IMG/VR virus record: IMGVR_UViG_3300048593_000385
Length of the DNA: 64,000 nt
Reading direction: 5' to 3' (one strand)
From: a virus
Taxonomy: Duplodnaviria; Heunggongvirae; Uroviricota; Caudoviricetes
Position numbers and translations under genes: made by a program. The notes beneath the pieces were generated by a model, which did no database searches, had not been told where the DNA came from, and saw only the letters and a program-made list of their open reading frames with translations. Positions 20,444 through 38,996 of this stretch are shown here, one piece after another (position 1 is the first letter of the stretch; each line of letters opens with the position of its first letter).

Positions 20444-20445
20444 GT

Positions 20446-21390
20446 TTAATCCTTGTATACTACTCTTGCCCCGTCTAATGCGACAGCCACATCAAGACAG
20501 ACTCGATCAGAAAACTCATGCTTCAATTTGTTTTTGTTGTCAGTCAGAGCCAGCATATATCCACCTCCTCCTGCGCCAAGCAGCTTTGCCCCTGACGCAC
20601 CAGCCTTCAGGCATCGGTCATAAAGAGAATCAATCTCTGGGCTGCTGATTCCACCTTCCAGCTGTTTCTTAAACTTCCATGCTTCGTTGAGCAGTGGACC
20701 GTAGAGATCGTAGGTCGGAGAAAGGTCGGCATGCATATCCGCCATGTGTGACATTTCACGAATGAGGTATGTCTTTTGATCAAAATCAATTTTATTGAGA
20801 ATCTCTGCAGCATGGCGCTGAATGTTTGTCGGAATCAAAACCATGGAGCTATCGATGCCTTTAGGGTCGATTCTCTGGACCAACACCCGATCGCTGGCAA
20901 GATATTCAATATAATTCATGCCACCGAAGGCAGAGGCATACTGATCTTGCTTCCCGATTGCCCAGCCGCACATATCGATCTCAATGTTACATGCAGCTTC
21001 CGCTAACTCATATTCGCTATACCGTTTACCGTTAGGGAAATATTCAGCAAGAGCAGCCACCAGTGCACAGGCGAAAGCAGAAGAACCTGCCAACCCTGTG
21101 CCAACTGTAGGAATATCAGCGAACGTGGTGATCTCGATATTAGATTTGATACCGAAATATTTTAAGGCATTCTTGACAATTTCATTTTGAATGTCATCAA
21201 CAGCAGTCACCAATTCTTGTTTAGAATAGTTGATCTTGATGTGATTCTGAGGAGTTCTTCCTACTGCAACGTAGACATACTTGTCAATCGCAGTAGAGAT
21301 TGTTGATCCGCCCCAACGAAGGTAGTGGGCAGGAATATCCGACCCACCACCAAAGAAGGAAACTCGAAGAGGTGCCTTAGCAAGAATCAT
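20446..21390 (-). CDS. hddA: GHMP-family sugar kinase (D-glycero-D-manno-heptose 7-phosphate kinase, HddA-like)
   Basis: 314 aa. MILAKAPLRVSFFGGGSDIP at the N-terminus and the GHMP motif PTVGTGLAGSSAFACALVAAL. Confidence 0.75.
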   Translation of the reverse strand: MILAKAPLRVSFFGGGSDIPAHYLRWGGSTISTAIDKYVYVAVGRTPQNHIKINYSKQELVTAVDDIQNEIVKNALKYFGIKSNIEITTFADIPTVGTGLAGSSAFACALVAALAEYFPNGKRYSEYELAEAACNIEIDMCGWAIGKQDQYASAFGGMNYIEYLASDRVLVQRIDPKGIDSSMVLIPTNIQRHAAEILNKIDFDQKTYLIREMSHMADMHADLSPTYDLYGPLLNEAWKFKKQLEGGISSPEIDSLYDRCLKAGASGAKLLGAGGGGYMLALTDNKNKLKHEFSDRVCLDVAVALDGARVVYKD

Positions 21391-21392
21391 AA

Positions 21393-22421
21393 TTACGACT
21401 TGTAGATAAACTTGGGAGCAGGAACAGACAGATCCTTACCTTCGTATTCATTCAACAACGATTCGCAGAGCGCATTCCATTGACTACCAATCTTATCCCA
21501 GTTGTAGCGATAGTCGGCATAAGTCTTTTGGAACTGTAGATACGGCATCATATCATTGTCGCGCATCTTTTGGATTGTGTCATCCAGAACAGCATAGAAC
21601 ATATTCGCATGAACATTGACATCCTGATCCCAATGGTACTGAATGGTAATGCTACCCGAGGTATCGGTAAGACCAGCATAGTTCGGGTGAACACAGACAG
21701 CACCAGATGACATTGCCTCGATCAACGACTGGCTGTTGCATTCTGGCCAGATCGAAGGATAGGCAAAGATATGTGCCTTTGCGACAGTCTCACGAACTGT
21801 TTCGTTCGGAGCAAAGCCATGGTAGTTAATCTTAGGATGATTACGACACTTGTCAAACAGATCCTCGAACTGTTGATCAGCATTTTCCCAACCGTAGATC
21901 TTATAGCTTGAGAAAACGTCAAGCACGATATTGTCATACTTTTCGCATAGCTTCTCGAACACAGGAACAAGAATGTTCAGACCACGTTGAGGAGTGCTGG
22001 TGTAAACCAAACGAATTTCTTCTTTCGGATCACTCTTGTTGATTGGGCCAAAAGGAGTTGTCGCAGTATCAATGACACAGCTTTGCTGAGTGTGCGGAAT
22101 TCCCAAATGATTTTGGTACATGTTCATCTGCCACTGGCCACAGTAGACAATCTTGTGGAAACGGTTGCGACTGTTCTCGGCGGTCAAATGCTTGGTCTCG
22201 GGATCCCAAGGCAAATCGTGCAACCAATAGATACGGATGCGATCATCATGCAGCTCGCGCACACGCGAGGGGATAATCTGAAACTTTTCGTGGTACTCTG
22301 GCTTCAATCGAGCCAGAACACCTTCCATCATTCGCTCTGTCCCACCTTGAGACTTTGCGTTCAATTCATTACGTTCCCAAATACTACTCATTGTAATTTC
22401 CCATCGTAAGTTCGGAGCCAT
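21393..22421 (-). CDS. Putative glycosyltransferase (GT-B, family 1/4-like)
   Basis: 342 aa. The C-terminal half (IRLVYTSTPQRGLNILVPVF ... AYPSIWPECNSQSLIEAMSSGAVCV) resembles the GT1/GT4 nucleotide-sugar-binding domain. Confidence 0.45.
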   Translation of the reverse strand: MAPNLRWEITMSSIWERNELNAKSQGGTERMMEGVLARLKPEYHEKFQIIPSRVRELHDDRIRIYWLHDLPWDPETKHLTAENSRNRFHKIVYCGQWQMNMYQNHLGIPHTQQSCVIDTATTPFGPINKSDPKEEIRLVYTSTPQRGLNILVPVFEKLCEKYDNIVLDVFSSYKIYGWENADQQFEDLFDKCRNHPKINYHGFAPNETVRETVAKAHIFAYPSIWPECNSQSLIEAMSSGAVCVHPNYAGLTDTSGSITIQYHWDQDVNVHANMFYAVLDDTIQKMRDNDMMPYLQFQKTYADYRYNWDKIGSQWNALCESLLNEYEGKDLSVPAPKFIYKS

Positions 22422-23383
22422 GGTTGCCCAACAAGCATCTGGCTACTAATAGATTCAAAGTGTGAAGTGATGATGTCGGCGAGATCATACTTTGGACCTT
22501 CTGGCCACATCAACGACAATTTATATGGATCGCCAATCAGGAATCCAGGATCGCCTGGACGAACTTCCGCAATATCATATTCCAGAGGATATAGTTTTGC
22601 GAATGTAAGAGCAAGTTGCAGATTCGACACAGGTTTGCCACTGCAAACATTGAAGGTGTCGTATTCACGTTCAGGCTTATTATATAGTTGTTCTGCTGCA
22701 GCAACCAGAGCATCACACACATCAGCTACGTGGATATAATCTCTTACGCATGTTCCATCAAAGGTGTCGTATTCATTACCGTTGATGTAGAATGTGTCAT
22801 CAGTCAAAGATGCCTTTGACATTTTGGTAAGGATATGTGGTTGATTAGCAGCTTGGCCGATACCTTTGTATGCACCAGCAACATTGAAGAAGCGCATTGA
22901 GTATGCCTTGAGGCCATACGCTTCGCATGATTCTTTCAACATCATCTCACCAACCCACTTGGTTGAGCCATAGGGATTGATTGGACTTCCAGCCACAACT
23001 TCAGGCAAAGGATCAGGGCTGCGCATATCACCATATGTTGCAGCAGAGGATGCAAAGATAAATGCACCCTTCCAGTTTTCTCTAGCTAAATTGGACAGCA
23101 TATCGCACATACTACTAACGTTATTATCATAGTAGTATAGTGGTTTGGATACCGATGGCCCAAGCAAACTGTTAGCGCCAAGATGGAAGATTGCATCAAC
23201 GCCATCCAGATCGCCGTCAGAGGCAATTGTTGCATAATTATCAATAAAAAACTCATCAGTGTTCCAGTCGTAATTGTCACACTTTACGTCTACGCCAATG
23301 ACATAATAACCAGCTTCTTTCAGCTTTAGCTGGAGAACACGCCCGATGAACCCTGATGCTCCAGTAACAATCGCCTTCTTCAT
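22388..23383 (-). CDS. NAD-dependent nucleotide-sugar epimerase/dehydratase (SDR extended family)
   Basis: 331 aa. N-terminal Rossmann motif MKKAIVTGASGFIGRVL and the YxxxK catalytic pair further downstream. Confidence 0.8.
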   Translation of the reverse strand: MKKAIVTGASGFIGRVLQLKLKEAGYYVIGVDVKCDNYDWNTDEFFIDNYATIASDGDLDGVDAIFHLGANSLLGPSVSKPLYYYDNNVSSMCDMLSNLARENWKGAFIFASSAATYGDMRSPDPLPEVVAGSPINPYGSTKWVGEMMLKESCEAYGLKAYSMRFFNVAGAYKGIGQAANQPHILTKMSKASLTDDTFYINGNEYDTFDGTCVRDYIHVADVCDALVAAAEQLYNKPEREYDTFNVCSGKPVSNLQLALTFAKLYPLEYDIAEVRPGDPGFLIGDPYKLSLMWPEGPKYDLADIITSHFESISSQMLVGQPWLRTYDGKLQ

Positions 23384-27634: not shown

Positions 27635-28048
27635 TTAGGATCTGGATGTTTCATTGTCTACTACCTTCTTGTAACGATTGTAAGTTCCATCAGCCTCTTC
27701 GATCATGATCTCATCAAGCTCAGTATTACATGCTATAACACGCTGTTCACCTTCTGCTACAATACGAGCAGCTGATCGAAGCCTACGCAATACAGCATTG
27801 GCAATACCAAACTTATTACGATTGGTTTCAATAGCTTCTTCTACCGCATCAGCACATTGACGATACAATTCATCAGGAAGTTCCCACGAATGATCGACAG
27901 CGTTTGCAAAGTCACCGACCCGACGAAGGTATGCTTGCCCACCATCCACCGAGATAGAGCCACAGGTGCAAGTTACAAAATCGTGACGGTGCTTAGAGAC
28001 GATGAAGTCTCCGCAGCCTAGACACGTTACAGCATTCTGAATAATCAT
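27635..28048 (-). CDS. Zinc-ribbon protein
   Basis: 137 aa with CLGCGD ... CTCGS Cys pairs near the N-terminus. Confidence 0.45.
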   Translation of the reverse strand: MIIQNAVTCLGCGDFIVSKHRHDFVTCTCGSISVDGGQAYLRRVGDFANAVDHSWELPDELYRQCADAVEEAIETNRNKFGIANAVLRRLRSAARIVAEGEQRVIACNTELDEIMIEEADGTYNRYKKVVDNETSRS

Positions 28049-28287
28049 GACGAAACCTTTTGATGAACCAAGGTAATATGCTTACATTTACCGTGGAAGT
28101 TGAATCCCATACAATCACACACCCAACCAGTTGCAACCATGGTTGTGTTGTATTGTTTACCTTTTGAATTTATATAGGGCCAAGTGAAACCGACCAGATG
28201 GTGTTCTTCGCTGAAATTTATTCCAGGAAGAGCAACAGGAGTTCGATAAGGACTTACTCCAGAAACTTGCATCATATAACCTCTCAA
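28045..28287 (-). CDS. SWIM zinc-finger domain protein
   Basis: 80 aa. WVCDCMGFNFHGKCKHI fits the SWIM CxCxnCxH signature. Confidence 0.5.
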   Translation of the reverse strand: MRGYMMQVSGVSPYRTPVALPGINFSEEHHLVGFTWPYINSKGKQYNTTMVATGWVCDCMGFNFHGKCKHITLVHQKVSS

Positions 28288-28329: not shown

Positions 28330-30411
28330 TTATTTTGAGGTTGCGCGATAAACACCATCCCAATTTTTAGGAGCAGCTTTGGCTTCGTTCATACGATCGA
28401 GCATGGCTTCGTAGTAGCCTTTGAGTTCTCCATTCCACAATGGACCCATTTCATATGCCATGGCCATGGCTCTGCCCCAATCACCTGAGCGATATGCATC
28501 CAGGAATCTGTTGTGAGCAATTTCAGCCTTTTCGTTCTTTTCTTCAAGAACTGTATAGATTCGAGCTGGTTCAGTTTTGCCTTTAACAGCAATCAAATCA
28601 AGTTCAATTACTTGGTATACATCCCTAACCAGTTCGGCAGTTTGTGGTCCGACGATGAGTTTGACCCCATAAGGTTTGGTTTGACCTTCGAGGCGAGCAG
28701 CCAAATTAACCCCATCACCCAAGCAAGTGTAATCAAAACGCTGGTCGCTGCCCATATTACCAACAACCACAGTGGCAGTGTTAATACCAAGACCCATACC
28801 GAAAGCTGGAATGCCTTCCCCTTTAATTTCGCCATTAAATATCTCCAGGTCTTTTAGCATCTGGAAAGCAGTGCGCACCGAATCCAAAGCATGTTGAGGG
28901 TTATCTACTGGTGCATTCCAGAAAGCCATCTGTGCGTCACCAATATACTTATCAAGTGTTCCTTTGTTTTCCAGAATAGCTCTTGTCATCACAGTCATAT
29001 ATCTATTCATTATGGAAGTAAGACCTTCAACGTCTTCGCCATAGTGTTCGGAAATAGTAGTGAAGCCACGAACATCAGTAAACATAATCGACAACTGTTG
29101 TTTTGTTCCACCTAGCTTGAGTAACTCTGGCTGTTTCTGCAGCTGAGCAACCAAGTCTGGCGACAGATACGTGCCAAACTGTTTCTTAATCTGTTGCTTT
29201 TGTAGGAATTCGCTGATAAACTTGGCAGTATATAGATGTATATATACAAACAGTGCAGCAGCAATATTGAACGACACATCAAAAAGGATGTGTTCTTTGG
29301 TAAATAAATAGAATGGTAGATACAGATATCCGCCCATGATCACGGCGATATATATAATTGAATAGCGGAAACGAGAAACAACAATCAATGACAGGCAAAC
29401 AAAAACAAATGCACCAAGATCAGCAAGTTGCCCCCACAGAGGAATCGCAACCGAATCACCATTTATCAGAGTCTGAAGAATTGACGCTTGCAACTGATGG
29501 GGATACTGCGCACCTTGTGGAGTCGCTACAGGATTCGCGATACCAGCGGCAGTTACGCCAAGTATCACAATTTTACCTGTCAGATCAGGCAAAGCCTTGT
29601 CACCAATTTCGAATGACGCAAATTTATAGTTCGGATTGACGAACACTCGACCATATTCATCAGTTTTAATTGTTTCGAAGGAAGGAATTCGTAATGCCTC
29701 AACTCCCGTCTGATTTATCTTCGCTTGATATGACGGATCTCCAGCAGCTACACGCAGCATCTCTAGAGCAAATGCGGGATAGTATTCGCCAGATGATTGT
29801 GCTAGAAGAGGAACTCGCCGTACGACCCCGTCTGCCTCAGGTAATGTTGATGTTATCCCAACACCGACAGCGGCTTCTTGCAGAGGTGCAATATTACTTA
29901 GAACGCATGGATATTGAGGAAGAAATTCAGTTGGTTCTCCATCGCCGATTACGGCAACGCCTGTCTTCCGAATTGTCGCACTTGCCTGAGGTGAACCTCG
30001 GCCAGTGGTCGATCCAGCAATACAGTCAGCGGAAACAGTCTGACTGAGTACAACTGGATATTCGCTTAGAGCATTCGCAAGAACTCTATCAGTCCCCAAG
30101 CGGTCAGGCTCAGGCATAAGTATAGTGCTGCCAACAGCGCCAGCCCCTCTGCTGTATATATCGCCAATGATTTTAGCATGGACTTCCCTCGGGAAAGGCC
30201 ACTGACCATATTTTTCAATTGATTTCTCCCCTAAATTAGCGACTACAATCTGCTCAGATTGCTTTGGTGTATCCAGCATGATGTAGTCATAAAATTTAAG
30301 GCGAGACGCTTCAACCAAAAATGGATCTTGTAGCTTTACTACAAGCAGTAGCGCAAATGTGATCAGTACCAACCACGGAGACAATAAAATTTTAATCGCT
30401 TTGTTTGACAT
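28330..30411 (-). CDS. Membrane-bound class III adenylate cyclase with periplasmic CHASE2 sensor domain
   Basis: 693 aa. N-terminal TM, then about 300 aa extracytoplasmic CHASE2-like domain, 3-4 TM helices, then the cyclase homology domain (FTDVRGFTTISE ... DKYIGDAQMAFWNAP ... GINTATVVVGNMG ... DYTCLGDGVNLAARLE). The Lys before YIGD indicates ATP specificity. Confidence 0.85.
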   Translation of the reverse strand: MSNKAIKILLSPWLVLITFALLLVVKLQDPFLVEASRLKFYDYIMLDTPKQSEQIVVANLGEKSIEKYGQWPFPREVHAKIIGDIYSRGAGAVGSTILMPEPDRLGTDRVLANALSEYPVVLSQTVSADCIAGSTTGRGSPQASATIRKTGVAVIGDGEPTEFLPQYPCVLSNIAPLQEAAVGVGITSTLPEADGVVRRVPLLAQSSGEYYPAFALEMLRVAAGDPSYQAKINQTGVEALRIPSFETIKTDEYGRVFVNPNYKFASFEIGDKALPDLTGKIVILGVTAAGIANPVATPQGAQYPHQLQASILQTLINGDSVAIPLWGQLADLGAFVFVCLSLIVVSRFRYSIIYIAVIMGGYLYLPFYLFTKEHILFDVSFNIAAALFVYIHLYTAKFISEFLQKQQIKKQFGTYLSPDLVAQLQKQPELLKLGGTKQQLSIMFTDVRGFTTISEHYGEDVEGLTSIMNRYMTVMTRAILENKGTLDKYIGDAQMAFWNAPVDNPQHALDSVRTAFQMLKDLEIFNGEIKGEGIPAFGMGLGINTATVVVGNMGSDQRFDYTCLGDGVNLAARLEGQTKPYGVKLIVGPQTAELVRDVYQVIELDLIAVKGKTEPARIYTVLEEKNEKAEIAHNRFLDAYRSGDWGRAMAMAYEMGPLWNGELKGYYEAMLDRMNEAKAAPKNWDGVYRATSK

Positions 30412-31483
30412 TTATAATAGTCCCGCCCGATGGTTGATTTACTTCGATTAGAAATGACTTTCCATTACTATCTATGTATAATGTTTTGTTTGAATCTTTT
30501 TTGACAACAATGTCAACAGTACTACTTAGTGTCCGAACGAGCCGTAGATAATCTCCAGAAAGAATTGTAGTTATCTGTGTAGTATTATCTAGCCCAAATG
30601 TTGTTCCGCACAACTTGGTGTCTTCTCTGGTGACACAATTATCTGCTCCTAAAGCATTGTCTAAAAAGTCTTCGCCGAGGTAATTTGCATCGATTGCATT
30701 AATATCAAGATCCGAACTTGCAAGTGCATTTTCTTGTAGATCATCTTTGGCAAGGAAATCTACATCAAGTTCAGAGAGATCCAGCATGTTAGTCCTGATA
30801 TCTCTCAATTCCTCCTCAGTCTTGAATTCTTCGGCAGGTGCTACGATGAGCATATTATCAATTTGATCAAGTGACATATTCAGAATGACTGGACGAGTAG
30901 GTCTGCTGTCTGTGGTTGATACTATGGTCGCTTGAAACGCTCTGGTCAAAATGACTGAGCCAGCAGCATTTGAAACAGTAATCTCACCAACTGATCCATC
31001 TTCCTCTGGCAGAAGGATGACCAAACTCTTTCCAAAATCATCGACTGTGGTCGCAAAGTCTGTTCCACGAACAGCAATCGTGGCTGTTGGTGTTCTCAGA
31101 TTAATATTGCCTTTGTTGATTTTTCCGGATTTACCTGTCGCAAATCTGGCAGTCCCCGAAGCAAATTTGAGAACCATTTTTGATGTTGATGGATTGCCGC
31201 TGTAAACAAAATCATCAACAACAAGCCTAGAATTTTCAGTGACTTTGACGGTAGAGTCGTCTAAAAAAGTTATCTCGACTCTACCGTTTCCAGTCTGCAC
31301 TTTGTCCATCTTGGCAATAGGTAACTGAAGTCGTGAAGGAACCTTTGCAGTTTTCTTCACAACTTCGCTCGAACCTCGAGTTTGAGTTACCTTACCAATA
31401 TTAGCATGGACCACCTGCGTTGCACTGATTAATAGTAATAGTGCTGCCGTTGCTCGTGCTATCAACTTTAAGTGTGTCAACAT
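30392..31483 (-). CDS. Secreted FecR-domain protein
   Basis: 363 aa. Signal peptide (LLLLISATQVVHA). FecR-type beta-rich pattern including ATIAVRGTDFATTV (the a.v.GT.F.v hallmark). Confidence 0.6.
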   Translation of the reverse strand: MLTHLKLIARATAALLLLISATQVVHANIGKVTQTRGSSEVVKKTAKVPSRLQLPIAKMDKVQTGNGRVEITFLDDSTVKVTENSRLVVDDFVYSGNPSTSKMVLKFASGTARFATGKSGKINKGNINLRTPTATIAVRGTDFATTVDDFGKSLVILLPEEDGSVGEITVSNAAGSVILTRAFQATIVSTTDSRPTRPVILNMSLDQIDNMLIVAPAEEFKTEEELRDIRTNMLDLSELDVDFLAKDDLQENALASSDLDINAIDANYLGEDFLDNALGADNCVTREDTKLCGTTFGLDNTTQITTILSGDYLRLVRTLSSTVDIVVKKDSNKTLYIDSNGKSFLIEVNQPSGGTIINVKQSD

Positions 31484-32096
31484 TTGTTGTGCTCTGCTGA
31501 TTTATTGTTAATGTATTTGTACTGCCTGTAAGAACCAATTCAATATTCTTCCCAGCATTGCCATTCTGCAGCGTAGTAATAGTATTACCATCACCAACAA
31601 TAGTCTTAGTGTTCACCACATCATCCGCATTTATGGTGGATGTCATTGTGTTGGTGTCACCAGTGATTGCGATAGTTTGTGTAGCATTAGTGGCTGATGC
31701 CGCTGTACCCTGATTAAAGGTCAAGTCGTTTGAATCCCCAGTCACTGTAAGTGTTTTGGTGGATCCAGCCACACTACCGCTATCGCCTTCGTCATACGTC
31801 AACTTATTGTTGTCGCCAGTAACAGTAACATCCTTATCGACATTATCTGCTTGAACAATAGAGCCTTGGATAATGTTTCCATTACCTTCTTGTTTGACTG
31901 TAACTGTTTGGTTATTACCTTCAATTACTACTCGATTCTGCTCAGAACCGATGCTGTTGGTTTGACCTTTTTGGGTAATAGTAATAGTGCTACTATCACC
32001 GACCTGATCAATAAAAATCGAGTTGGTTGTTGTTTGTGCAAAACTCACCGAACTCGTCATCAGAAACATAATGAAAAGAGCTATTTTATTTTTCAT
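31401..32096 (-). CDS. Secreted curlin-repeat protein (CsgA/CsgB-like amyloid subunit)
   Basis: 231 aa. Signal peptide. Tandem degenerate repeats of the form ITQKGQTNS / VKQEGNGNIIQG / TVTGDNNKLTYDEGDSG / TVTGDSNDLTFNQG / AITGDTNTMTS / LTGSTNTLTINQ, resembling curlin repeats (S-x5-Q-x-G-x-G-N). Confidence 0.6.
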   Translation of the reverse strand: MKNKIALFIMFLMTSSVSFAQTTTNSIFIDQVGDSSTITITQKGQTNSIGSEQNRVVIEGNNQTVTVKQEGNGNIIQGSIVQADNVDKDVTVTGDNNKLTYDEGDSGSVAGSTKTLTVTGDSNDLTFNQGTAASATNATQTIAITGDTNTMTSTINADDVVNTKTIVGDGNTITTLQNGNAGKNIELVLTGSTNTLTINQQSTTNVDTLKVDSTSNGSTITINQCNAGGPC

Positions 32097-32101: not shown

Positions 32102-32920
32102 TTATTCCTTTAATGATACCGATCGATCGATATCGATCTTCGGTGCGAACTTAAAATATCCTTTCTCGATACCCTGTTTTATCAATTGTAAAACTGCTTC
32201 TTCAATCGCCATTTTGACTGCCATGGTGTTGGCTTCATTTTCGGTCATGCCTGCTTCGGCTTCCACCAATTTTGTGCCAACATCGACAAATTTAAACAGT
32301 GACAGATCTTTACCGACAGATAATACTGTTTTAGAAACTTGCACATTAAGAACAACTTCTCCAGTATTAGTGTTGACTCCTCGCAGAGAAACAACAACCT
32401 GATCTTTTCGGTAGACGACAGAGCCTCCTACACCAAGATATCTTGCTCCTGCTCCGCCTGTCTGTATGTTACTATCATACCCGATAATACCACCTTGGAT
32501 GATGAGCCCAGCGAACAGCATTGGTTCGAGTTTATTTGCACCCTCACCAAGATATTCTTCACGAGTCTGTCTAACAATCTGACGTTCTTTGGCAAGATCC
32601 TCGACACGATTTCGTTCTACAACTCTAAACCATGTTCCTCCACCTGCATCCCTCAAAGCAGAAATTAATAGTGGTGTTCCGCCTTGTGTGACTGCAGTTG
32701 ATATGCTGGCAATACCATCTTTATCTCTGCGTTGACCTGTCATATCAGGAAAGTCATAAACCGCTACTACTGCTTGTCTGTCAGGCGCAGGAAGGTTGTA
32801 TAATTCTTTGACTTGTGTCTTTACAATCTTTGCATCTTCTTTTAATTGAAGACCAACAGGTCCAGATGCCACGCAACCACACAGAAGAAAAGGTAATAAT
32901 AGAATCTTCCACATTACCAC
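32102..32920 (-). CDS. csgG: Curli production assembly/transport outer-membrane lipoprotein CsgG
   Basis: 272 aa. Lipobox LLCGC. Extensive collinearity with E. coli CsgG, for example AVVAVYDFPDMTGQ (VSVYNIQDETGQ) and GLIIQGGIIGYDSNIQTGGAGARYLGVGG (NIMVEGSIIGYESNVKSGGVGARYFGIGA). Confidence 0.9.
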   Translation of the reverse strand: MVMWKILLLPFLLCGCVASGPVGLQLKEDAKIVKTQVKELYNLPAPDRQAVVAVYDFPDMTGQRRDKDGIASISTAVTQGGTPLLISALRDAGGGTWFRVVERNRVEDLAKERQIVRQTREEYLGEGANKLEPMLFAGLIIQGGIIGYDSNIQTGGAGARYLGVGGSVVYRKDQVVVSLRGVNTNTGEVVLNVQVSKTVLSVGKDLSLFKFVDVGTKLVEAEAGMTENEANTMAVKMAIEEAVLQLIKQGIEKGYFKFAPKIDIDRSVSLKE

Positions 32921-33366
32921 TTGAATCCACTTGTTGGAACTATAATCTCAGTTTGATTGCCAGCTGCATCAATGATCACAAGTTTAATTTCTGTTTCAGT
33001 TTTTTCATACTTGATAGTGTTGCCTTCGAGTATGAATTCTCCAGCCTCTCCGCCATCTTCGCCAAACAAATTATTGGTAAGCTGTTGTGCCAGCTGAGAA
33101 TAGATACGAGACTGCAAGTTATTCAAGAAACGATTCAAAATAGAGTTTTTTTCTTCGAGAGCCTTTGCTTTCAAATCAGCTTCTATCTTGTCCTGTATAG
33201 TTTTTTTACGCAGAGTCTCTTGATTTTCAATCGTCAGCCATTGCGCTCCAGCATTGACGCCAGAGAATGAAGGATTTTTAAATTGATGGACCAGTTCACT
33301 TGCTTGCAGGTGGCTGCTTGTCAGGAGCAGCATTAGTGCCGTCACTCGTTTTAGCATCTTTCCCAT
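32914..33366 (-). CDS. csgF: Curli assembly protein CsgF-like
   Basis: 150 aa. Signal peptide, then LVHQFKNPSFSGVNAGAQWLTIENQ (E. coli CsgF: [25 protein letters not shown]). C-terminal KLVIIDAAGNQTEIIVPTSG ([30 protein letters not shown]). Confidence 0.7.
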   Translation of the reverse strand: MGKMLKRVTALMLLLTSSHLQASELVHQFKNPSFSGVNAGAQWLTIENQETLRKKTIQDKIEADLKAKALEEKNSILNRFLNNLQSRIYSQLAQQLTNNLFGEDGGEAGEFILEGNTIKYEKTETEIKLVIIDAAGNQTEIIVPTSGFKW

Positions 33367-33422: not shown

Positions 33423-33689
33423 TCAATCTTTAGATTTACTTGCATTTTTATGCTCCTCGTGAACCTGCAGCACAACGTTAACCTTTTGTTGTAACCTAAT
33501 TAGATCATTGTCCAACATTCTAATACGATCAATCAGTGCGATCAAAATTACATTTGTTTCACCAATCAGAGGCATTAATCTGTCAGTAACAAACTTATAG
33601 ATAAAGAATACAAAGTAACCCATTCCCACAGACGCTACGATCGGGAAACCATATTGTTTTATTAACTCCGCAACAACTTGTGGATCCAT
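33423..33689 (-). CDS. Small single-TM protein, paralog 1 (holin-like?)
   Basis: 88 aa with N-terminal TM (FPIVASVGMGYFVFFIYKFV) followed by a coiled-coil. Tandem paralog of the next ORF. Confidence 0.4.
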   Translation of the reverse strand: MDPQVVAELIKQYGFPIVASVGMGYFVFFIYKFVTDRLMPLIGETNVILIALIDRIRMLDNDLIRLQQKVNVVLQVHEEHKNASKSKD

Positions 33690-33976
33690 CAGTCCCTCCG
33701 AGCATCATTCTTTCCATCTGCTCGGGCGATTCTATCCAAATCAGGTCGAAGACCAAGAGCAGAACTAACTACAGCATCAACACGAATAATGTCGTGGTTC
33801 ATAGTTTTCACTCGGTTGTCCAACCCCATAATGATACCTTGCATTCCTTTGATTGCTTTCAAAACACTCTCAAGAATATAGTTGATCACAAAATACACGA
33901 AAACCCCACCGAGCAAACAAGCTGCGATGGGGAAGCCGACATCGGCGATCAGTTGAAAGATAACATCATATTGCAT
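33689..33976 (-). CDS. Small single-TM protein, paralog 2 (holin-like?)
   Basis: 95 aa. Same architecture (FPIAACLLGGVFVYFVINYI, then a coiled-coil). Confidence 0.4.
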   Translation of the reverse strand: MQYDVIFQLIADVGFPIAACLLGGVFVYFVINYILESVLKAIKGMQGIIMGLDNRVKTMNHDIIRVDAVVSSALGLRPDLDRIARADGKNDARRD

Positions 33977-34168
33977 GCATCTATTTATAATAAAAGCGAA
34001 GTGGGAGGATTTAGGTATACCTCCAAGGTCCAGTCAATTACTATCTGTAATCTCGACCCACGACTCGTTAGCTGGTTAAGCAGGAGACCAATCCCCGAGT
34101 CTACTTTATCCCCACTGACGAGGGGATTATTCAGTCACACTTCTTACTAGACCCGTCGGTCCAGATAT

Positions 34169-34245
34169 TTGGTACGGGATGACAGGCTCGAACTGCCGAC
34201 ATTCTGCGTGTAAAGCAGACGCTCTACCAACTGAGCTAATCCCGC
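34169..34245 (-). tRNA. tRNA-Val (TAC)
   Basis: Cloverleaf with anticodon loop TTTACAC, T-arm GGCAG-TTCGAGC-CTGTC, CCA encoded. Confidence 0.65.
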
Positions 34246-34246
34246 A

Positions 34247-34684
34247 TTAACTTCTTACCATATGGTCAGCTGCATGCGTTGCAGCAAATGCCTCAGGTTT
34301 AACTTTTGCATCAAGACCAGTAGTTCCTTTGACATATCCCAATGCTTCTTTTATCGCAATACTAGATTTGTGCTTAGGATCAGGATTGATGTCAAGGTGA
34401 ATTTCTAGTTTGCGATCGCCAACAACATCAATAATTTCTGTTGCTGCTTGGATCGCAAATCCAGCTTCGGTGATCATTCTTTGACGAAGGTTTCCGTAGT
34501 CGCGCATGTCAACCGAATTGTGCCAAAGCTGACAACCATGCTTCGAATCCTTGTGCAGGATGATCACGGTCGAATACTTTGCCCACCACTCCTTGTTCTT
34601 TTTATATCGAATGCTATCGGCACCAACATAAATTGTAGAAGTGTCGCTTGATTCTATAATTGCCTTCTTTGCTTCATCAAACAT
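34247..34684 (-). CDS. Hypothetical protein, possibly RNase H-like fold nuclease
   Basis: 145-aa ORF embedded in the tRNA array. Acidic residues are spaced as in RuvC/YqgF-like nucleases (IYVGADS ... ITEAGF ... EIHLDINPD), which is weak evidence. Confidence 0.3.
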   Translation of the reverse strand: MFDEAKKAIIESSDTSTIYVGADSIRYKKNKEWWAKYSTVIILHKDSKHGCQLWHNSVDMRDYGNLRQRMITEAGFAIQAATEIIDVVGDRKLEIHLDINPDPKHKSSIAIKEALGYVKGTTGLDAKVKPEAFAATHAADHMVRS

Positions 34685-34698
34685 AAATCACCTAAAAA

Positions 34699-34773
34699 CT
34701 GGCGAAGGTGCCGAGACTCGAACTCGGAACGACGGTTTTGGAGACCGTAATGATAGCCATTTCACCACACCGA
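34699..34773 (-). tRNA. tRNA-Trp (CCA), acceptor stem with two mismatches
   Basis: Anticodon arm ACGGT-CTCCAAA-ACCGT, T-arm CCGAG-TTCGAGT-CTCGG, CCA encoded. The acceptor GTCGGTG/CACCTTC has two non-pairing positions. Confidence 0.5.
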
Positions 34774-34779
34774 CAAAAA

Positions 34780-34857
<78 letters not shown>

Positions 34858-34862
34858 AATTA

Positions 34863-34944
34863 TGGAGCCCAAGACAGGATTCGAACCTGCATCTTACTTC
34901 CAGTTACCTTTGGCTCCGTTCGTAGCGGAGAGGGATACTTGGGC
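34863..34944 (-). other. Degenerate tRNA-like element (perfect acceptor stem, T-arm and CCA, but aberrant D/anticodon region)
   Basis: Acceptor GCCCAAG/CTTGGGC, T-arm GCAGG-TTCGAAT-CCTGT, CCA. The interior contains a perfect 5-bp/7-nt hairpin CTCCG-CTACGAA-CGGAG (anticodon-like ACG) but no orthodox D-arm. Confidence 0.3.
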
Positions 34945-34949
34945 AAAAG

Positions 34950-35024
34950 TGGAGCGGATGATCGGGATCGAACCGACGACGAACAGCTTGGAAGGCTGAC
35001 ACTCTACCACTGAGTTACATCCGC
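34950..35024 (-). tRNA. tRNA-Gly (TCC)
   Basis: Anticodon loop CTTCCAA, T-arm GTCGG-TTCGATC-CCGAT, CCA encoded. Confidence 0.6.
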
Positions 35025-35039
35025 ATTAAACTTATTTAG

Positions 35040-35115
35040 TGGCGAGGACGATGGGTTTCGATCCCACTACCTCCAGCGTGACAAGCTGGTGCTCTCCCGA
35101 TTGAGCTACGCCCCC
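35040..35115 (-). tRNA. tRNA-Asp (GTC)
   Basis: Anticodon arm CCAGC-TTGTCAC-GCTGG, CCA encoded. Confidence 0.65.
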
Positions 35116-35117
35116 AA

Positions 35118-35202
35118 TGGTGGGTCAGTGAGGTATCGATCCTCCCCCGAAGACGGATCGGATTTACAGTCCGACTGCCAGAGCCACTGGCTTTACCGAC
35201 CC
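35118..35202 (-). tRNA. tRNA-Tyr (GTA), long variable arm
   Basis: Anticodon arm TCGGA-CTGTAAA-TCCGA, extended variable arm, CCA encoded. Confidence 0.6.
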
Positions 35203-35208
35203 TTAAAA

Positions 35209-35291
35209 TGGTACGGGTAGAGGGACTTGAACCCCCACGCCGAAGCGCTAGTACCTAAAACTAGTGTGTCTGCCAATTCCACCATACCCGC
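35209..35291 (-). tRNA. tRNA-Leu (TAG), long variable arm
   Basis: Anticodon arm CTAGT-TTTAGGT-ACTAG, T-arm GGGGG-TTCAAGT-CCCTC, CCA encoded. Confidence 0.6.
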
Positions 35292-35380
35292 ATAGGAGTA
35301 TCTCACGTCTCGATACACGTGCTAAACATTCACGACAGACTCCATACACCATACGGTATGCGAGTAGTTTAGCTATTAAC

Positions 35381-35456
35381 TGGTGCCTTCGGAGGGAGTC
35401 GAACCCCCGACACGTGGATCTTCAATCCACTGCTCTACCAACTGAGCTACAAAGGC
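35381..35456 (-). tRNA. tRNA-Phe (GAA)
   Basis: Anticodon arm GTGGA-TTGAAGA-TCCAC, T-arm GGGGG-TTCGACT-CCCTC, CCA encoded. Confidence 0.65.
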
Positions 35457-35548
35457 AAATAAAAACTCCTTAACAAATGCGTTTCCTAGGACACAAATGT
35501 TACCGCCTGTCAGTTCAGGTCGGAACTTAAACCAGAGGTCGGAGTCAA

Positions 35549-36565
35549 TTAGATAATTATTGCTGCCGTACAATTTGCACATATCTCACGATATGCTCGT
35601 TCAACTGTAGCGGCATGGGCATCGCTGCCCCAAATTTCTCGAATAGTTTGGGTGTTAATGTTTCCAAACTTATAGTCGAAATTATAATCGTTACAACAAA
35701 GAATCACGTCACCTGCTGCATTGATATGCAGCCATTCGGTGGTTCTGTCGCCCCAATTTCCACAACCGACAACGGTGCGAGTCTCGAGTCTGCGTTCCTG
35801 CATCTCTTTGTTAGAAATATAATCAGAAAGCAAACCAGTGCGATCCATCAACGAACCTTTGCCGACATTAAACTTGGGGAACCTTCGATCAGCGATCACC
35901 CACTGTCGTTCCCACTCGCCATGTTCTCTGTCTAAGTTAATATCAAGTTCGTCAAACTTTGGACCTTTGGTTGTTCGACCATTGAAATCTTCAGTGTTAA
36001 CACCGTTGACATGGATATTGAGTTCTATAAGCCCATGCAGAGTTTCTCCTGCATAATCCAGATTCTCCATCAATTCGTCGAACCGTCTTTCAGGAAACCC
36101 AGCACGCTTTGCCCACAGTTCCTTCTCAAAAGCAGGAATGTTCAGCCCAATATGAGGAACAACATCTTTATACTCTTTGATCAGATCGACTTTTTCTTTG
36201 TTCAGGTTCATACCATTACTGAGAATAAAAGTCTGCAGCTTATATTTTCTGGCAAGTTCCAACAGCCCAGCAAAATCCTTATACAAAAGAATCTCGCTAT
36301 AATGAGTTGTCATAAACAAACTAAAGCTGCGATCAACAACACCTTCTTCTTTGTCTCGTTCTTCTACAAATTGCTTGAAGATTTTCTCGACAGTTTCCAA
36401 AGGCATTTGAACCATGCCTTCTTCTGGCTGAGGAATATATCTTACAGGGCAATACCAACATTTGGCATTACAGAATCCAAACACATCAAGCTGAAGCATT
36501 TTGATCTTCGCCTTGGCGAGTCTAGATTGCACATAAGTCATATTACTGTCGCTAGAAGATAACAT
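35549..36565 (-). CDS. Radical SAM domain protein (Cys-rich C-terminal, SPASM/twitch-like)
   Basis: 338 aa. CNAKCWYCP matches the CxxxCxxC radical-SAM cluster motif near the N-terminus. The C-terminal CGNWGD ... CCNDYNF ... CANCT gives an auxiliary cluster signature. Confidence 0.7.
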   Translation of the reverse strand: MLSSSDSNMTYVQSRLAKAKIKMLQLDVFGFCNAKCWYCPVRYIPQPEEGMVQMPLETVEKIFKQFVEERDKEEGVVDRSFSLFMTTHYSEILLYKDFAGLLELARKYKLQTFILSNGMNLNKEKVDLIKEYKDVVPHIGLNIPAFEKELWAKRAGFPERRFDELMENLDYAGETLHGLIELNIHVNGVNTEDFNGRTTKGPKFDELDINLDREHGEWERQWVIADRRFPKFNVGKGSLMDRTGLLSDYISNKEMQERRLETRTVVGCGNWGDRTTEWLHINAAGDVILCCNDYNFDYKFGNINTQTIREIWGSDAHAATVERAYREICANCTAAIII

Positions 36566-36719
36566 TTTAATTCCTTTTTATGAGCGACCACCCACAGTGT
36601 GCCTTGATCAATTACTTCCGGACGCTTGATCTTCCTAGATAGTCTTTACTGTTGCAACAGCAAGCGCTACCCTTTTCTCTATGTGGTTTCCCACGAGGTT
36701 CAGCAGAGGTGGTCTATAA

Positions 36720-36795
36720 TGGTGGAGGATAACGGGATCGAACCGTTGACCTTCTGCGTGCAAGGCAGACGCTCTCCCAGCTGAGCTAATCCCCC
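36720..36795 (-). tRNA. tRNA-Ala (TGC)
   Basis: Anticodon arm CTGCC-TTGCACG-CAG.., T-arm AACGG-TTCGATC-CCGTT, CCA encoded. Confidence 0.65.
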
Positions 36796-36944
36796 AATTC
36801 TTTAAACACAATTTTAATATTCGAAACTTTATATATCTCTGCTAAAACCGTTTCATCTGTAAATGCCGCACGATTCAAAGGTGTATCGGGCACATACATC
36901 ACACATTCTGCAGATTCGCTTCTCATATTCATATCCTAGAATAA

Positions 36945-37020
36945 TGGTGCCCTCATGAGGACTCGAACCCCAGACCCCCTGCTTACAAGGCAGGTGCTCT
37001 ACCAACTGAGCTATAAGGGC
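36945..37020 (-). tRNA. tRNA-Thr (TGT)
   Basis: Anticodon arm CCTGC-CTTGTAA-GCAGG, T-arm CTGGG-TTCGAGT-CCTCA, CCA encoded. Confidence 0.65.
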
Positions 37021-37205
37021 AGTAAACTTCTTAAATGACCACACTGGCTACTGAGATGTTGCCACGCACACTGGCAGTAATTTCGCTCTTTACGTTCCTA
37101 TCTTCCCCCGAGCGCTTGGTCGCCACAGGAACTTCCAGTGTGGTCATCTAAAAGGTCTAACAATTTCAAAGAGCAACGTATTTAGTGATTTTCTCACTAT
37201 AATTC

Positions 37206-37234
37206 ACTATAACTCGAAATAAATAATATGTCAA
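37206..37234 (-). promoter_or_regulatory. Early promoter cassette copy 9, perfect consensus (TTGACA-17-TATAGT), driving the tRNA sub-cluster
   Basis: Minus strand reads AGTGCTTGACATATTATTTATTTCGAGTTATAGTGAATTATAGTGAG. Confidence 0.6.
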
Positions 37235-37245
37235 GCACTATTTTA

Positions 37246-37323
37246 TGGTAGGGGTAGTGGGACTCGAACCCACACTGTGGGGATTTTAAGTCCCCTGACT
37301 CTAACCAATTGGCCTATACCCCC
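37246..37323 (-). tRNA. tRNA-Leu (TAA)
   Basis: Anticodon arm GGGGA-CTTAAAA-TCCCC, T-arm GTGGG-TTCGAGT-CCCAC, CCA encoded. Confidence 0.6.
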
Positions 37324-37324
37324 A

Positions 37325-37400
37325 TGGGGTGATCGACGGGTAACGATCCCGCAACTCCGGATTCACAATCCAGCATGTATCCATTAACACCTCGACCACC
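37325..37400 (-). tRNA. tRNA-His (GTG) with encoded G-1
   Basis: Anticodon arm CTGGA-TTGTGAA-TCCGG, T-arm GCGGG-ATCGTTA-CCCGT, an extra 5' G pairing opposite the discriminator (typical of bacterial tRNA-His), CCA encoded. Confidence 0.5.
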
Positions 37401-37507
37401 ATAAACTCTGTGTGGAACAGTCCCCGCTGCTCTGTATTACTGTTTGCTCAATGGGGTTACATAAGGTCGACCTCATCTCTTTTCTATGCAAACAAACCAC
37501 GCAAACT

Positions 37508-37596
37508 TGGCGGAACGTCTGGGAGTCGAACCCAGTCTACCCTTTACAGGTAGTACAGATTAGCAGTCTGCTGCATTACCGTCCTGCCCACGTTCC
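37508..37596 (-). tRNA. tRNA-Ser (GCT), long variable arm
   Basis: Acceptor GGAACGT/ACGTTCC, anticodon loop CTGCTAA, long variable arm, T-arm CTGGG-TTCGACT-CCCAG, CCA encoded. Confidence 0.55.
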
Positions 37597-37602
37597 TATG
37601 TC

Positions 37603-38400
37603 TTACTTTACGTTGACAATACCCTTGAAGTCATAAGGAACAACGATGGTGTTAACCTTGCCGTCCTTAATCGCTTCAGCAATCGTCACGATAGCAGTAG
37701 CTTCCATATACTTAGTTGCGCCAGCGTTAGCATTCAATGCAGAGATACGCTGTGCTTCAAGTTTTGCAGTAGAAACTTCTACTTCCTTACGCTTGTTTTC
37801 ATTTTGCGCTTGGACCAAAAGGTTAGCAGACTGCACGATATTGGCTGCAGGCTTGACCTGACGAACCAGAACCTGTGAGATAGAAATTGAGTTATCTAGC
37901 TTTTCAGATGCGAGGCTTGCAATAATTTCCTGACGAACAAGCTGTTCGATTTCAGCACGATTGTCTGCCATCTTCAGTGACTCGTAGCGACGAGCAACCT
38001 TGTATGCAGCATTACGACCCAACTGACGAATGTAGTTATACATCAACAGCGTATCACCTTCTTCGGTGTCAGCGTGGAAGCCACGATTCTTCTCGATGTA
38101 GAGTTCGGCAACCGAACCTGGATTGATCGAGTAGATGACTGCCATGTCGAAGTCAGCAACGGTCGAGTTATCTGACGCGAGTGGAGTCAAGTCAGCAACG
38201 TCAACAGAAACGTCCTTGGTAGGAAACGTCATAACATCGCCAAACAGTGTCTGGTTGATTGATCCTGGCATCAACTCTGTGGTTTCAATGGTCTTGTCGA
38301 TAGCACGACGAACACCTACTTCACCTGTTTCAATTCGAGTACAAGCAGCAGTCGTAGCCATGAGACCAGCGAGCACAGCAATCTTAGCAATACGATTCAT
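37603..38400 (-). CDS. SPFH/Band-7 (prohibitin/HflKC-like) domain protein with N-terminal signal-anchor
   Basis: 265 aa with an N-terminal hydrophobic segment, followed by a domain with SPFH-type periodicity and a C-terminal Ala/Gln-rich coiled-coil. Confidence 0.6.
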   Translation of the reverse strand: MNRIAKIAVLAGLMATTAACTRIETGEVGVRRAIDKTIETTELMPGSINQTLFGDVMTFPTKDVSVDVADLTPLASDNSTVADFDMAVIYSINPGSVAELYIEKNRGFHADTEEGDTLLMYNYIRQLGRNAAYKVARRYESLKMADNRAEIEQLVRQEIIASLASEKLDNSISISQVLVRQVKPAANIVQSANLLVQAQNENKRKEVEVSTAKLEAQRISALNANAGATKYMEATAIVTIAEAIKDGKVNTIVVPYDFKGIVNVK

Positions 38401-38412
38401 AATATATCTTCC

Positions 38413-38637
38413 TTAAAACAAAACGATAATAGCAAGAGCAAATAGCGACGCGATTGTCGCAATGCCCAACGAGTAACTGGCCAACTTAACAAACTCCATC
38501 TTTTCTTTTCCGGTCAGCCGACGGAAAATATCAATGCTTGTATATAAAATTATACACATTGACAAGAAAGCAAAAATCATTTTACCCATAACAATCTCCA
38601 AAAATGGTGGACGGTCTGGGGTTTGAACCCAGGACAC
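38413..38637 (-). CDS. Small membrane protein
   Basis: 74 aa with two TM segments. Confidence 0.35.
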   Translation of the reverse strand: MSWVQTPDRPPFLEIVMGKMIFAFLSMCIILYTSIDIFRRLTGKEKMEFVKLASYSLGIATIASLFALAIIVLF

Positions 38638-38680
38638 ACAGGTTAAAAGCCCGTTGCTCTACCTACTGAGCTAACCGTCC
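38605..38680 (-). tRNA. tRNA-Lys (TTT)
   Basis: Anticodon arm ACGGG-CTTTTAA-CCTGT, T-arm CTGGG-TTCAAAC-CCCAG, CCA encoded. It overlaps the predicted start of the small membrane ORF. Confidence 0.6.
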
Positions 38681-38684
38681 GAAT

Positions 38685-38760
38685 TGGTAGACCCTGTTGG
38701 ATTCGAACCAACGACCTGCGGATTAAGAGTCCGATGCTCTACCGACTGAGCTAAGGGTCC
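38685..38760 (-). tRNA. tRNA-Lys (CTT)
   Basis: Anticodon arm TCGGA-CTCTTAA-TCCGC (first pair mismatched), T-arm GTTGG-TTCGAAT-CCAAC, CCA encoded. Confidence 0.5.
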
Positions 38761-38768
38761 ATTAAACT

Positions 38769-38984
38769 TTAACCGATGTAGATCCGATGACGTTCGGAAT
38801 CTACAGGAGCGCCGACTACACGATGCTCGATGTAGTAAAAATCGATGAATTGATCGCCGTCACGAGTATACACACCGTAGGCAGTCCGTGCTTCTTCTTC
38901 AGATGCATACACGCCCAACAACAGCGAACCGTGGTGATCAAACTCACCTAACAATGCAAAAACTTCCATTTCGAATTCCTTCAT
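38769..38984 (-). CDS. Hypothetical protein
   Basis: 71-aa ORF preceded by cassette copy 10. Confidence 0.35.
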   Translation of the reverse strand: MKEFEMEVFALLGEFDHHGSLLLGVYASEEEARTAYGVYTRDGDQFIDFYYIEHRVVGAPVDSERHRIYIG

Positions 38985-38996
38985 TTCCTATTATTC

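Follow-up and report, generated by a model that had tools for sequence, protein, structure and literature searches.

A CHASE2-sensor cyclase and a secreted FecR-domain protein in the curli-type cassette of a T4-like phage: likeness to bacterial receptor cyclases and a possible role in envelope signalling

Introduction

Receptor cyclases with a CHASE2 sensor domain have been characterized in Sinorhizobium meliloti, in which CyaK, CyaD1, and CyaD2 raise cyclic AMP (cAMP) in response to a proteinaceous signal that is received via the outer-membrane-associated protein NsrA, and the cAMP then acts through the Crp-family regulator Clr (PMC7529298, PMC13001267). The signal of the NsrA/CyaK system is ribosomal protein uL2, a ubiquitous protein that crude bacterial and yeast lysates contain (PMC7529298), and CyaD1 lacking its CHASE2 domain makes cAMP constitutively (PMC5498481). 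In Burkholderia and Pseudomonas, genes for LysM-FecR proteins are found directly upstream of genes for CHASE2 histidine kinases (PMC5192318). This article is focused on a gene pair at positions 28330-31483 of the virus record IMGVR_UViG_3300048593_000385 (Caudoviricetes), consisting of a gene for a secreted FecR-domain protein and a gene for a CHASE2-sensor adenylate cyclase, and on the curli-type cassette to which the pair belongs; the whole stretch of 64,000 nucleotides that was analysed is referred to as the window.

Related modules have been described in phages. A "curli operon" was reported in pelagimyophages by Zaragoza-Solas et al. 2020, who called its function unclear (PMC7029224), and a pinholin- or secretin-like pore or a role in lysis timing was proposed for CsgG and CsgF of Methylophilales phage Melnitz by Buchholz et al. 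2022, whose article mentions neither the cyclase nor FecR (PMC9004378). Wittmers et al. 2022 described a viral curli (type VIII secretion system, T8SS) cluster in podo- and myoviruses, comprising a "histidine kinase," CsgF, CsgG, CsgA/B, FecR, often a second CsgA/B, and an adenylate cyclase; they noted that FecR and the cyclase are absent from bacterial curli operons, inferred an alphaproteobacterial origin, and read FecR as an iron regulator, and CHASE2 is never named in their article (PMC9599517). The window cyclase shares approximately 40% identity with its counterparts in Pelagibacter phage HTVC008M (KC465899) and Melnitz (MZ577097), which are annotated as adenylate/guanylate cyclases, and the whole cassette is syntenic in both phages. 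An earlier reading of the window, made from its letters and open reading frames (hereafter the sequence-only reading), had regarded the pair as unseen in T4-like phages, which does not hold in view of these annotations and of the description by Wittmers et al. 2022 (PMC9599517). The gene pair is thus already published and is not new as a discovery. The refinements that were not found in the phage papers of 2020-2022 are the reading of the pair as a CHASE2 system of the CyaK type, the apparent fusion of two units, and a late-type box before the cassette; a full-text literature search returned no paper linking CHASE2 to a phage cyclase.

Structure of the CHASE2-Sensor Cyclase

The cyclase gene occupies positions 28330-30411 and the FecR gene positions 30392-31483, both on the minus strand, where the sequence-only reading had placed them. 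Pfam and Protein Data Bank (PDB) matches, hydropathy, and collinearity with CyaK identify the 693-residue product of the former as a putative CHASE2-sensor class IIIb adenylate cyclase, laid out as an N-terminal transmembrane (TM) segment, a periplasmic CHASE2 domain, three TM segments, a cytoplasmic cyclase domain, and a helical tail of approximately 70 residues. A Kyte-Doolittle hydropathy scan places the TM segments at approximately aa 7-27 and, for the other three, within approximately aa 331-398 ahead of the cyclase domain, a layout that corresponds to the usual CHASE2 topology with a periplasmic sensor and a cytoplasmic output. The CHASE2 domain (PF05226/COG4252) covers aa 21-340 (29392-30351, minus strand) with an E-value of 7.8e-37 and 127.7 bits against a cut-off of 26.3, and its signature GQWPFPR, which is kept across the phage clades, aligns with SQWPWPR of CyaK. 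Both the periplasmic CHASE2-like domain and the multi-TM region named by the sequence-only reading are therefore borne out.

The catalytic domain (Pfam Guanylate_cyc, PF00211) covers aa 437-614 (28570-29103, minus strand) with an E-value of 1.2e-16 and 61.3 bits against a cut-off of 21.9, and carries the residues D446, K488, D492, R558, T562, N569, R573, and K612. The closest solved structures are those of CyaB of Pseudomonas aeruginosa (3r5g, E 5.8e-32) and CyaC of Spirulina (1wc1, E 1.3e-26). On alignment to these two structures, the metal-binding Asp pair (D446/D492), the adenine-specifying substrate pair (K488/T562), and the transition-state pair (N569/R573) of the phage enzyme all coincide with the corresponding residues, including the Thr at the second substrate-specifying position, although the sensor domains of CyaC and CyaB are unlike CHASE2. 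A Thr or Ser at this position is the mark of the bicarbonate-responsive subclass. The DKYIGD motif lies at aa 487-492, so that the ATP-specifying Lys proposed earlier is indeed K488. As judged from the alignment, the active site of a class IIIb adenylate cyclase is complete. Neither of the outcomes that would have contradicted the sequence-only reading, missing metal-binding or transition-state residues or an N-terminal domain unlike CHASE2, was observed.

In all 84 full-length viral cyclases compared, D446, K488, D492, R558, R573, and K612 are invariant, which argues that the viral cyclase is catalytically active and maintained by selection. T562 is present in 78 of the 84 proteins and N569 in 81, with Melnitz-like proteins as the exceptions, and P72 and R75 of the CHASE2 domain are invariant in 84/84 viral homologues.

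The evidence on substrate specificity bears on an alternative in which the product is not cAMP but cGMP, cCMP, or cUMP, which might, for example, interfere with the cyclic-nucleotide immune signalling of the host. The Pycsar cyclase (PycC) profiles of PADLOC match the catalytic domain (E 9.5e-23), and the S. meliloti relatives have been described as adenylate/guanylate cyclases (PMC13001267). However, CyaC and CyaB, the best matches among solved structures and both proven adenylate cyclases, share the K488/T562 pair, a PycC match is expected from any class III cyclase fold, and a Pycsar effector (PycTM or PycTIR) was not matched by PADLOC among the other cassette proteins; a product other than cAMP is accordingly considered highly improbable.

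Structure of the FecR-Domain Protein

The FecR gene encodes a protein of 363 aa, the definition of which draws on Pfam, on the conservation of the signal peptide, and on an alignment of two phage clades. The FecR domain (PF04773) spans aa 60-155 with an E-value of 4.1e-12 and 46.8 bits against a cut-off of 24, and the protein holds IAVRGTDFATTV, the motif on which the sequence-only reading had relied. The N-terminus, MLTHLKLIARATAALLLLISATQVVHA followed by NIGKV, has signal-peptide features over aa 1-27 that are kept in the Melnitz and HTVC008M orthologues and in relatives of approximately 80% identity; the earlier description of a secreted FecR-domain protein is hence upheld. The conserved beta-rich region of the two-clade alignment extends over aa 28-215. 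The C-terminal part (approximately aa 230-363; 30392-30800, minus strand) begins with an acidic repeat region with D-x-D-F-L-type motifs at approximately aa 235-275 and continues into a small beta-rich domain that ends in a curlin-like strand, GGTIINVKQSD, the corresponding end in the HTVC008M clade being NAITIQQIN. FecR homologues were collected as the best 120 matches per query, all of which are at least 76% or at least 83% identical to the query. According to NCBIfam, the protein is similar to the FecR-domain lipoproteins Lsa33 and LipL45 of Leptospira.

Both ends of the gene overlap its neighbours. The FecR stop overlaps the cyclase start by 20 nucleotides (nt), and the 3′ end of the upstream curlin-repeat gene overlaps the FecR start by 83 nt (31401-31483, minus strand), and it is this overlap that encodes the signal peptide. 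Several public gene callers start FecR later, which yields a protein of 340-341 aa from which the signal peptide is lost.

The domain content also bears on the published interpretation, in which the protein would be an iron (ferric citrate) regulator that ties the module to iron limitation. This interpretation draws on the name of the Pfam family and on the discussion by Wittmers et al. 2022 (PMC9599517). Against it, PF04773 is the sole Pfam match and stands behind a cleavable signal peptide, with neither an anti-sigma domain nor a membrane anchor found in the protein; a Pfam scan of the seven cassette proteins and 20 neighbouring proteins returned neither an ECF sigma factor nor a TonB-dependent transducer; and the bacterial FecR-domain/CHASE2 pairs are not iron systems (PMC5192318, PMC7529298). 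Because of the missing anti-sigma domain and anchor and of the missing sigma factor and transducer among the genes scanned, the FecR-domain protein is, by its sequence, not an iron-regulatory FecR, and a link to iron limitation appears scarcely credible.

Bacterial Relatives of the Pair

In a search of plasmid records, the cyclase proved to be homologous to, and collinear with, rhizobial CHASE2 cyclases over its full length. Its identity to S. meliloti CyaK is 30% over 655 aligned positions (E 2e-77), which span the CHASE2, TM, and cyclase regions, and CyaD1 and CyaD2 likewise combine CHASE2, three TM segments, and a class III cyclase domain as in the phage protein. These S. meliloti receptor cyclases, together with NsrA and SMc02177, are among the known systems nearest to the phage pair. 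The gene preceding cyaK shares a start/stop base with it and encodes a protein of 1190 aa with an N-terminal FecR domain, tetratricopeptide (TPR) repeats, and a weak C-terminal match to an outer-membrane barrel. We take this gene to be that of NsrA, the description of which its architecture fits. The phage and cyaK loci are thus alike in that a FecR-domain gene lies directly upstream of the cyclase gene and overlaps it, although the partner of CyaK has 1190 residues and contains TPR repeats and a C-terminal barrel; the 363-residue phage protein instead has an acidic region and a small beta-rich domain. Moreover, the S. meliloti cyclase loci are without CsgG, CsgF, and curlin genes, unlike the phage cassette.

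A FecR-domain gene also adjoins the CHASE2 gene at the locus of a second S. meliloti cyclase, at that of an Ensifer homologue (35% identity), and in Desulfopila and Rhodocyclaceae. Neither FecR nor CsgG was found near the cyclase at two Roseibium loci, which are clearly bacterial (31% identity). In the LysM-FecR and CHASE2 histidine kinase operons of Burkholderia (BiofilmReg), a secreted FecR-domain protein is encoded immediately upstream of the CHASE2 sensor, as in the phage, and a related operon of a penicillin-binding protein (PBP) and a histidine kinase is present in P. aeruginosa PAO1 (PMC5192318). These operons differ from the phage pair in that the output is a histidine kinase with a response regulator and not a cyclase, in that the FecR-domain protein carries LysM, and in that curli genes are absent. 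The recurrence of FecR-domain/CHASE2 pairs in bacteria, which the sequence-only reading had put forward, is consequently documented both by the published Burkholderia and Pseudomonas operons (PMC5192318) and by the Sinorhizobium, Ensifer, Desulfopila, and Rhodocyclaceae loci.

The Seven-Gene Cassette and Its Conservation

The pair named by the sequence-only reading is real, but the unit was drawn too small: FecR and the cyclase form the 3′ end of a cassette of seven genes. All seven lie on the minus strand and are separated or overlapped by tens of bases at most; the order is a pair of genes for small membrane proteins, followed by those for CsgF, CsgG, the curlin-repeat protein, FecR, and the cyclase. 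Each of the products bears a signal peptide, a lipobox, or TM segments, and the cassette as a whole is therefore aimed at the cell envelope. The first gene (33689-33976, minus strand; 95 aa) and the second gene (33423-33689, minus strand; 88 aa) encode single-pass membrane proteins of phrog_18771 (PHROG E 3.6e-29, with synteny, and 2.1e-30, respectively), which are paralogues with a conserved C-terminal helix, LDNRV..M..D, and for which no Pfam, NCBIfam, or PADLOC domain was found. From the gene order, the "histidine kinase" slot of Wittmers et al. would correspond to these two proteins, which have no kinase domain in the window. They are followed by a CsgF-type secreted protein of 150 aa (32914-33366, minus strand; Pfam CsgF 4.2e-22) and a CsgG-type outer-membrane lipoprotein channel of 272 aa (32102-32920, minus strand; Pfam CsgG 1.1e-47, NCBIfam CsgG 4.2e-50). 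The curlin-repeat secreted protein of 231 aa (31401-32096, minus strand) has a signal peptide and approximately eight 22-residue strand-turn-strand repeats, which are matched by Pfam Curlin_rpt (2e-8, 34.5 bits against 20.7) and weakly by the CsgA model of NCBIfam (1.1e-4).

CsgG, CsgF, and a curlin-repeat protein are shared with the curli systems of enterobacteria (CsgBAC/CsgDEFG) and alphaproteobacteria (CsgH-type), CsgG at 36-49% identity. The phage cassette differs in the addition of FecR and the cyclase, in the weak curlin-repeat match, and in the lack of CsgE, CsgC, CsgD, and CsgH, none of which was matched by Pfam or NCBIfam among the cassette proteins; furthermore, the CsgH proteins of Bosea and Rhizobium, used as queries, matched nothing in the cassette, including the C-terminus of the FecR-domain protein. 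In gene content and order, and in lying on one strand of a T4-like myovirus, the cassette agrees with the T8SS modules of HTVC008M and Melnitz. It differs from the module of Wittmers et al. in that the second curlin-repeat gene between FecR and the cyclase is absent.

The bacterial CsgG proteins nearest to that of the phage are alphaproteobacterial and plasmid-encoded, with identities of 44-49%. The plasmid loci of Bosea, Azospirillum, and Rhizobium (44-47% identity) contain genes for CsgH, CsgF, CsgG, and curlin-type proteins, and neither FecR nor CHASE2/cyclase genes were found at these three inspected loci, a small sample. Conversely, CsgG was not found at the bacterial CHASE2 loci examined. 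Because the nearest bacterial CsgG operons examined are without FecR and the cyclase, the phage module looks like a fusion, on this small sample, of a curli-type secretion unit and a FecR/CHASE2-cyclase unit, both of alphaproteobacterial type.

Relatives of the cyclase are encoded on 554 IMG/VR contigs. The loci of 80 of these contigs were searched with cassette profiles derived from the window, Melnitz, HTVC008M, and a single metagenomic relative. Where the cyclase is preceded by 2.7 kb or more of sequence, 57 of 58 viral loci carry a FecR gene; where it is preceded by 5.6 kb or more, all 45 loci have CsgF, CsgG, curlin, and FecR in the same order. In 24 of these 45 loci, a second curlin-repeat gene fills a gene-sized slot that separates FecR from the cyclase, and in the remaining 21 FecR abuts or overlaps the cyclase as in the window, with no second curlin gene between them. 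Both small membrane-protein paralogues accompany the cassette in the relatives. In a clade of approximately 50% identity (loci L100-L105 and L014), the genes for the small membrane proteins lie downstream and on the opposite strand.

At least 7,900 database proteins match the cyclase at E-values up to 1e-20, the best 120 being 75-92% identical, and the lineage of the window is distinct and very abundant. A scan of 185,579 species genomes with the cyclase alignment yielded 17 loci, mostly on contigs of metagenome-assembled genomes (MAGs), and six of these have cassette genes beside the cyclase. The contigs L006-L014 are binned into Bacteroidota, Rhodobacteraceae, and Pirellulales MAGs, and with cassette genes on six of these nine they are probably mis-binned phage DNA and were set aside as evidence on the host. 

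Proposed Mechanism of Envelope Signalling

The reading that we favour somewhat assigns the FecR-domain protein and the CHASE2 cyclase to signalling within a conserved accessory module directed at the envelope, in which they would convert an envelope cue into cAMP. In this scheme, CsgG would be an outer-membrane channel, the curlin-repeat protein would be secreted, the FecR-domain protein would reside in the periplasm, and the CHASE2 cyclase and the small proteins would be embedded in the inner membrane. The relay from NsrA to the CHASE2 cyclases of S. meliloti, together with the constitutive activity of CyaD1 without CHASE2, leads us to infer a FecR-to-CHASE2 relay in the phage. By this analogy, the periplasmic FecR-domain protein would pass an envelope or extracellular cue to CHASE2 in the infected cell, and the cue may be the state of the CsgG/CsgF channel or of the curlin-like product. 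CHASE2 would then release the cytoplasmic cyclase, and cAMP would be made in the infected cell.

Several observations weigh against this scheme, each step of which is inferred as far as the phage is concerned. No Pfam match to TPR repeats or to a barrel was obtained in the phage FecR-domain protein. AlphaFold2 models of this protein reached a mean pLDDT of 33.5 with 25 sequences and of 40.2 with 38 sequences from two clades, values too low to use, and hence lend the scheme no structural support. The Melnitz-type cyclases (locus L001, which is Melnitz itself, and loci L009 and L014) have Ser at the position of the transition-state Asn and Asp at that of the Thr, and may possess altered or reduced activity. 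Furthermore, a receptor for the product, such as the rewiring of CRP-type host regulation suggested by the sequence-only reading would require, was not found in the window. Whereas Clr is the known cAMP receptor in S. meliloti, a phmmer search with Escherichia coli CRP gave no match among the open reading frames (ORFs) of the window at E-values up to 10, nor among those of 90 related viral and MAG loci at E-values up to 1, and Pfam found no cyclic nucleotide monophosphate (cNMP)-binding domain in the 20 neighbouring proteins. This search is a weak one, given that the query was a single sequence and the window represents 64 kb of a contig of approximately 160 kb, and the receptor may be a host protein.

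The remaining objections coincide with the evidence for a different role, in which the FecR-domain protein is a curli-type secretion factor, that is, a periplasmic assembly, chaperone, or capping factor or a fibre subunit that replaces CsgE, CsgC, or CsgH, while the CHASE2 cyclase senses something unrelated and the two genes are neighbours through shared inheritance only. Podovirus modules always retain FecR, often without the cyclase (PMC9599517), so that the protein may serve the secretion system instead; the second curlin gene separates FecR from the cyclase in 24/45 loci, strict adjacency thus not being universal; the curlin-like strand that ends the protein in both phage clades would also fit the handling of fibres; and the module lacks CsgE, CsgC, and CsgH. 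By contrast, FecR-domain genes adjoin CHASE2 genes in five bacterial loci that have no CsgG (see also PMC5192318), the end of the FecR gene overlaps the beginning of the cyclase gene in the window and in 21/45 relatives, and CsgH and the FecR-domain protein are without sequence similarity. On balance, we regard a role of the FecR-domain protein in secretion as unlikely, and signalling to the cyclase as the better account of the pair.

An extension of the signalling scheme is conceivable, in which CsgG/CsgF, the FecR-domain protein, and the CHASE2 cyclase together constitute a phage-built trans-envelope relay that turns an extracellular cue into cAMP late in infection. Since the NsrA/CyaK relay senses uL2 of crude lysates, the phage relay might sense the debris of lysed neighbours. 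If so, it might adjust lysis timing or surface fibres and would represent a counterpart, based on proteins, of lysis inhibition or phage-to-phage communication. This extension is speculative and, in our estimation, rather improbable.

Expression Signals and Lysis Timing

A TATAAATA box, the consensus of T4 late promoters, lies at 33982-33989 on the minus strand, 5 nt upstream of the first ATG of the cassette. The window contains 11 such boxes against 2.06 expected, a number reached by none of 100 shuffled sequences, and at four long minus-strand genes (5566, 55255, 60427, and 61599) the box stands 25-29 nt from the ATG. At the first cassette gene, the pattern (T/C)ATAAATA-N4-8-ATG is kept in 30 of 52 relatives with a variable spacer sequence, and in two relatives (L058 and L067) the late-type box directly follows a terminator hairpin. 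These features tentatively suggest that the cassette has its own late promoter and would be expressed late from a nearly leaderless mRNA. The spacing of 5 nt against 25-29 nt elsewhere speaks less well for the scheme proposed above, as it may indicate either a leaderless mRNA or a box that is not a promoter. Scans of the cassette region for sigma-70 promoters and terminators returned no more sites than in shuffled sequence.

Late expression would also suit a further explanation, in which the module is a lysis-timing device whose CsgG/CsgF pore opens late and permeabilises the envelope, with the cyclase and FecR tuning the timing. Such a role is in line with the pinholin- or secretin-like function proposed by Buchholz et al. 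2022 (PMC9004378), with the conserved T4-late-type box before the cassette, and with the two small single-pass membrane proteins that always occur with it. However, there is no adjacent endolysin, the cell-wall hydrolase at 13333-13965 being approximately 14 kb away; holins and pinholins have the inner membrane as their target, but CsgG is an outer-membrane protein; and the conserved curlin-repeat substrate and the intact cyclase site, the latter belonging to an enzyme that Buchholz et al. never mention, are left unexplained. A dedicated lysis timer is therefore thought to be quite improbable.

A manA RNA motif, which T4-like cyanophages are known to carry as an orphan riboswitch candidate (PMC2864571), is located at 33994-34163 (minus strand), between the tRNA-Val gene and the TATAAATA box of the first cassette gene. 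Its match to Rfam RF01745 extends over the full-length model and reaches 66.1 bits, the gathering score being 55.2. Of 19 relatives scanned, four have the motif (L026, L027, L058, and L067), in each case behind the tRNA array and at a distance of 17 nt to 1.7 kb ahead of the cassette, and the other 15 loci lack it. As a dedicated leader of the cassette in general it was rejected, because its position goes with the end of the tRNA array and it is immediately next to the cassette in the window and L026 only; its link to the cassette is uncertain.

Genomic Setting

The phage setting assumed by the sequence-only reading is secure: the window encodes a gp32-type single-stranded DNA-binding protein (SSB), ribonucleotide reductase, ThyX, PhoH, and tail and tape-measure proteins of a T4-like myovirus, along with 24 tRNA genes and a tmRNA. 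The G+C content is approximately 43%, and this value, together with the identity of approximately 40% to the cultured phages, argues for a lineage other than that of the Pelagibacter/OM43 phages. The gp32 SSB is nearest to those of Caulobacter phage Cr30 and cyanophages, not to that of HTVC008M. The same cassette, with a FecR gene of 100% identity, is present on a contig of 160,657 bp (JGI 3300044716 Ga0453708_0000020).

An array of 21 tRNA genes (34170-41353, minus strand) is located directly upstream of the cassette and contains genes for a radical SAM/SPASM protein (35549-36565), a Band 7/SPFH protein (37603-38400), and a peroxiredoxin (40235-40813), and two further tRNA genes (11009-11411, minus strand) are located downstream of the cassette. 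The tmRNA (14633-15049, minus strand) is of the permuted, two-piece alpha type with the tag peptide ANDNDVAFALAA, as identified by ARAGORN and Rfam (tmRNA_permuted 91.6 bits, alpha_tmRNA 54.2 bits); a two-piece tmRNA is common to Melnitz and the window. Directly downstream of the cyclase are an 80-residue ORF with a Cys/His-rich motif, CDCMGFNFHGKCKH, and a gene for a DUF7695 protein of 137 aa (27635-28287, minus strand), and the same DUF7695 gene is found 3′ of the cyclase on the source contig L109. Sugar/LPS-type genes encode a SIS-domain protein, a GHMP kinase, a glycosyltransferase, and an NAD-dependent epimerase/dehydratase (19344-23383, minus strand), with a cytidyltransferase-like protein (57126-59120, minus strand) as a further member, and this cluster is similar to the surface-modification genes known from pelagimyophages.

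Perspective

The cassette is common in aquatic viromes, and its function is still called unclear in the phage literature (PMC7029224, PMC9004378, PMC9599517). The window adds a member of a distinct lineage, without the second curlin gene. In place of the published "iron regulator" interpretation, the pair is read here as a CyaK-type CHASE2 receptor cyclase with a FecR-domain partner, and the function of the module thereby becomes testable. If the proposed mechanism is true, these phages would install in the host an envelope sensor and a second-messenger source of their own.

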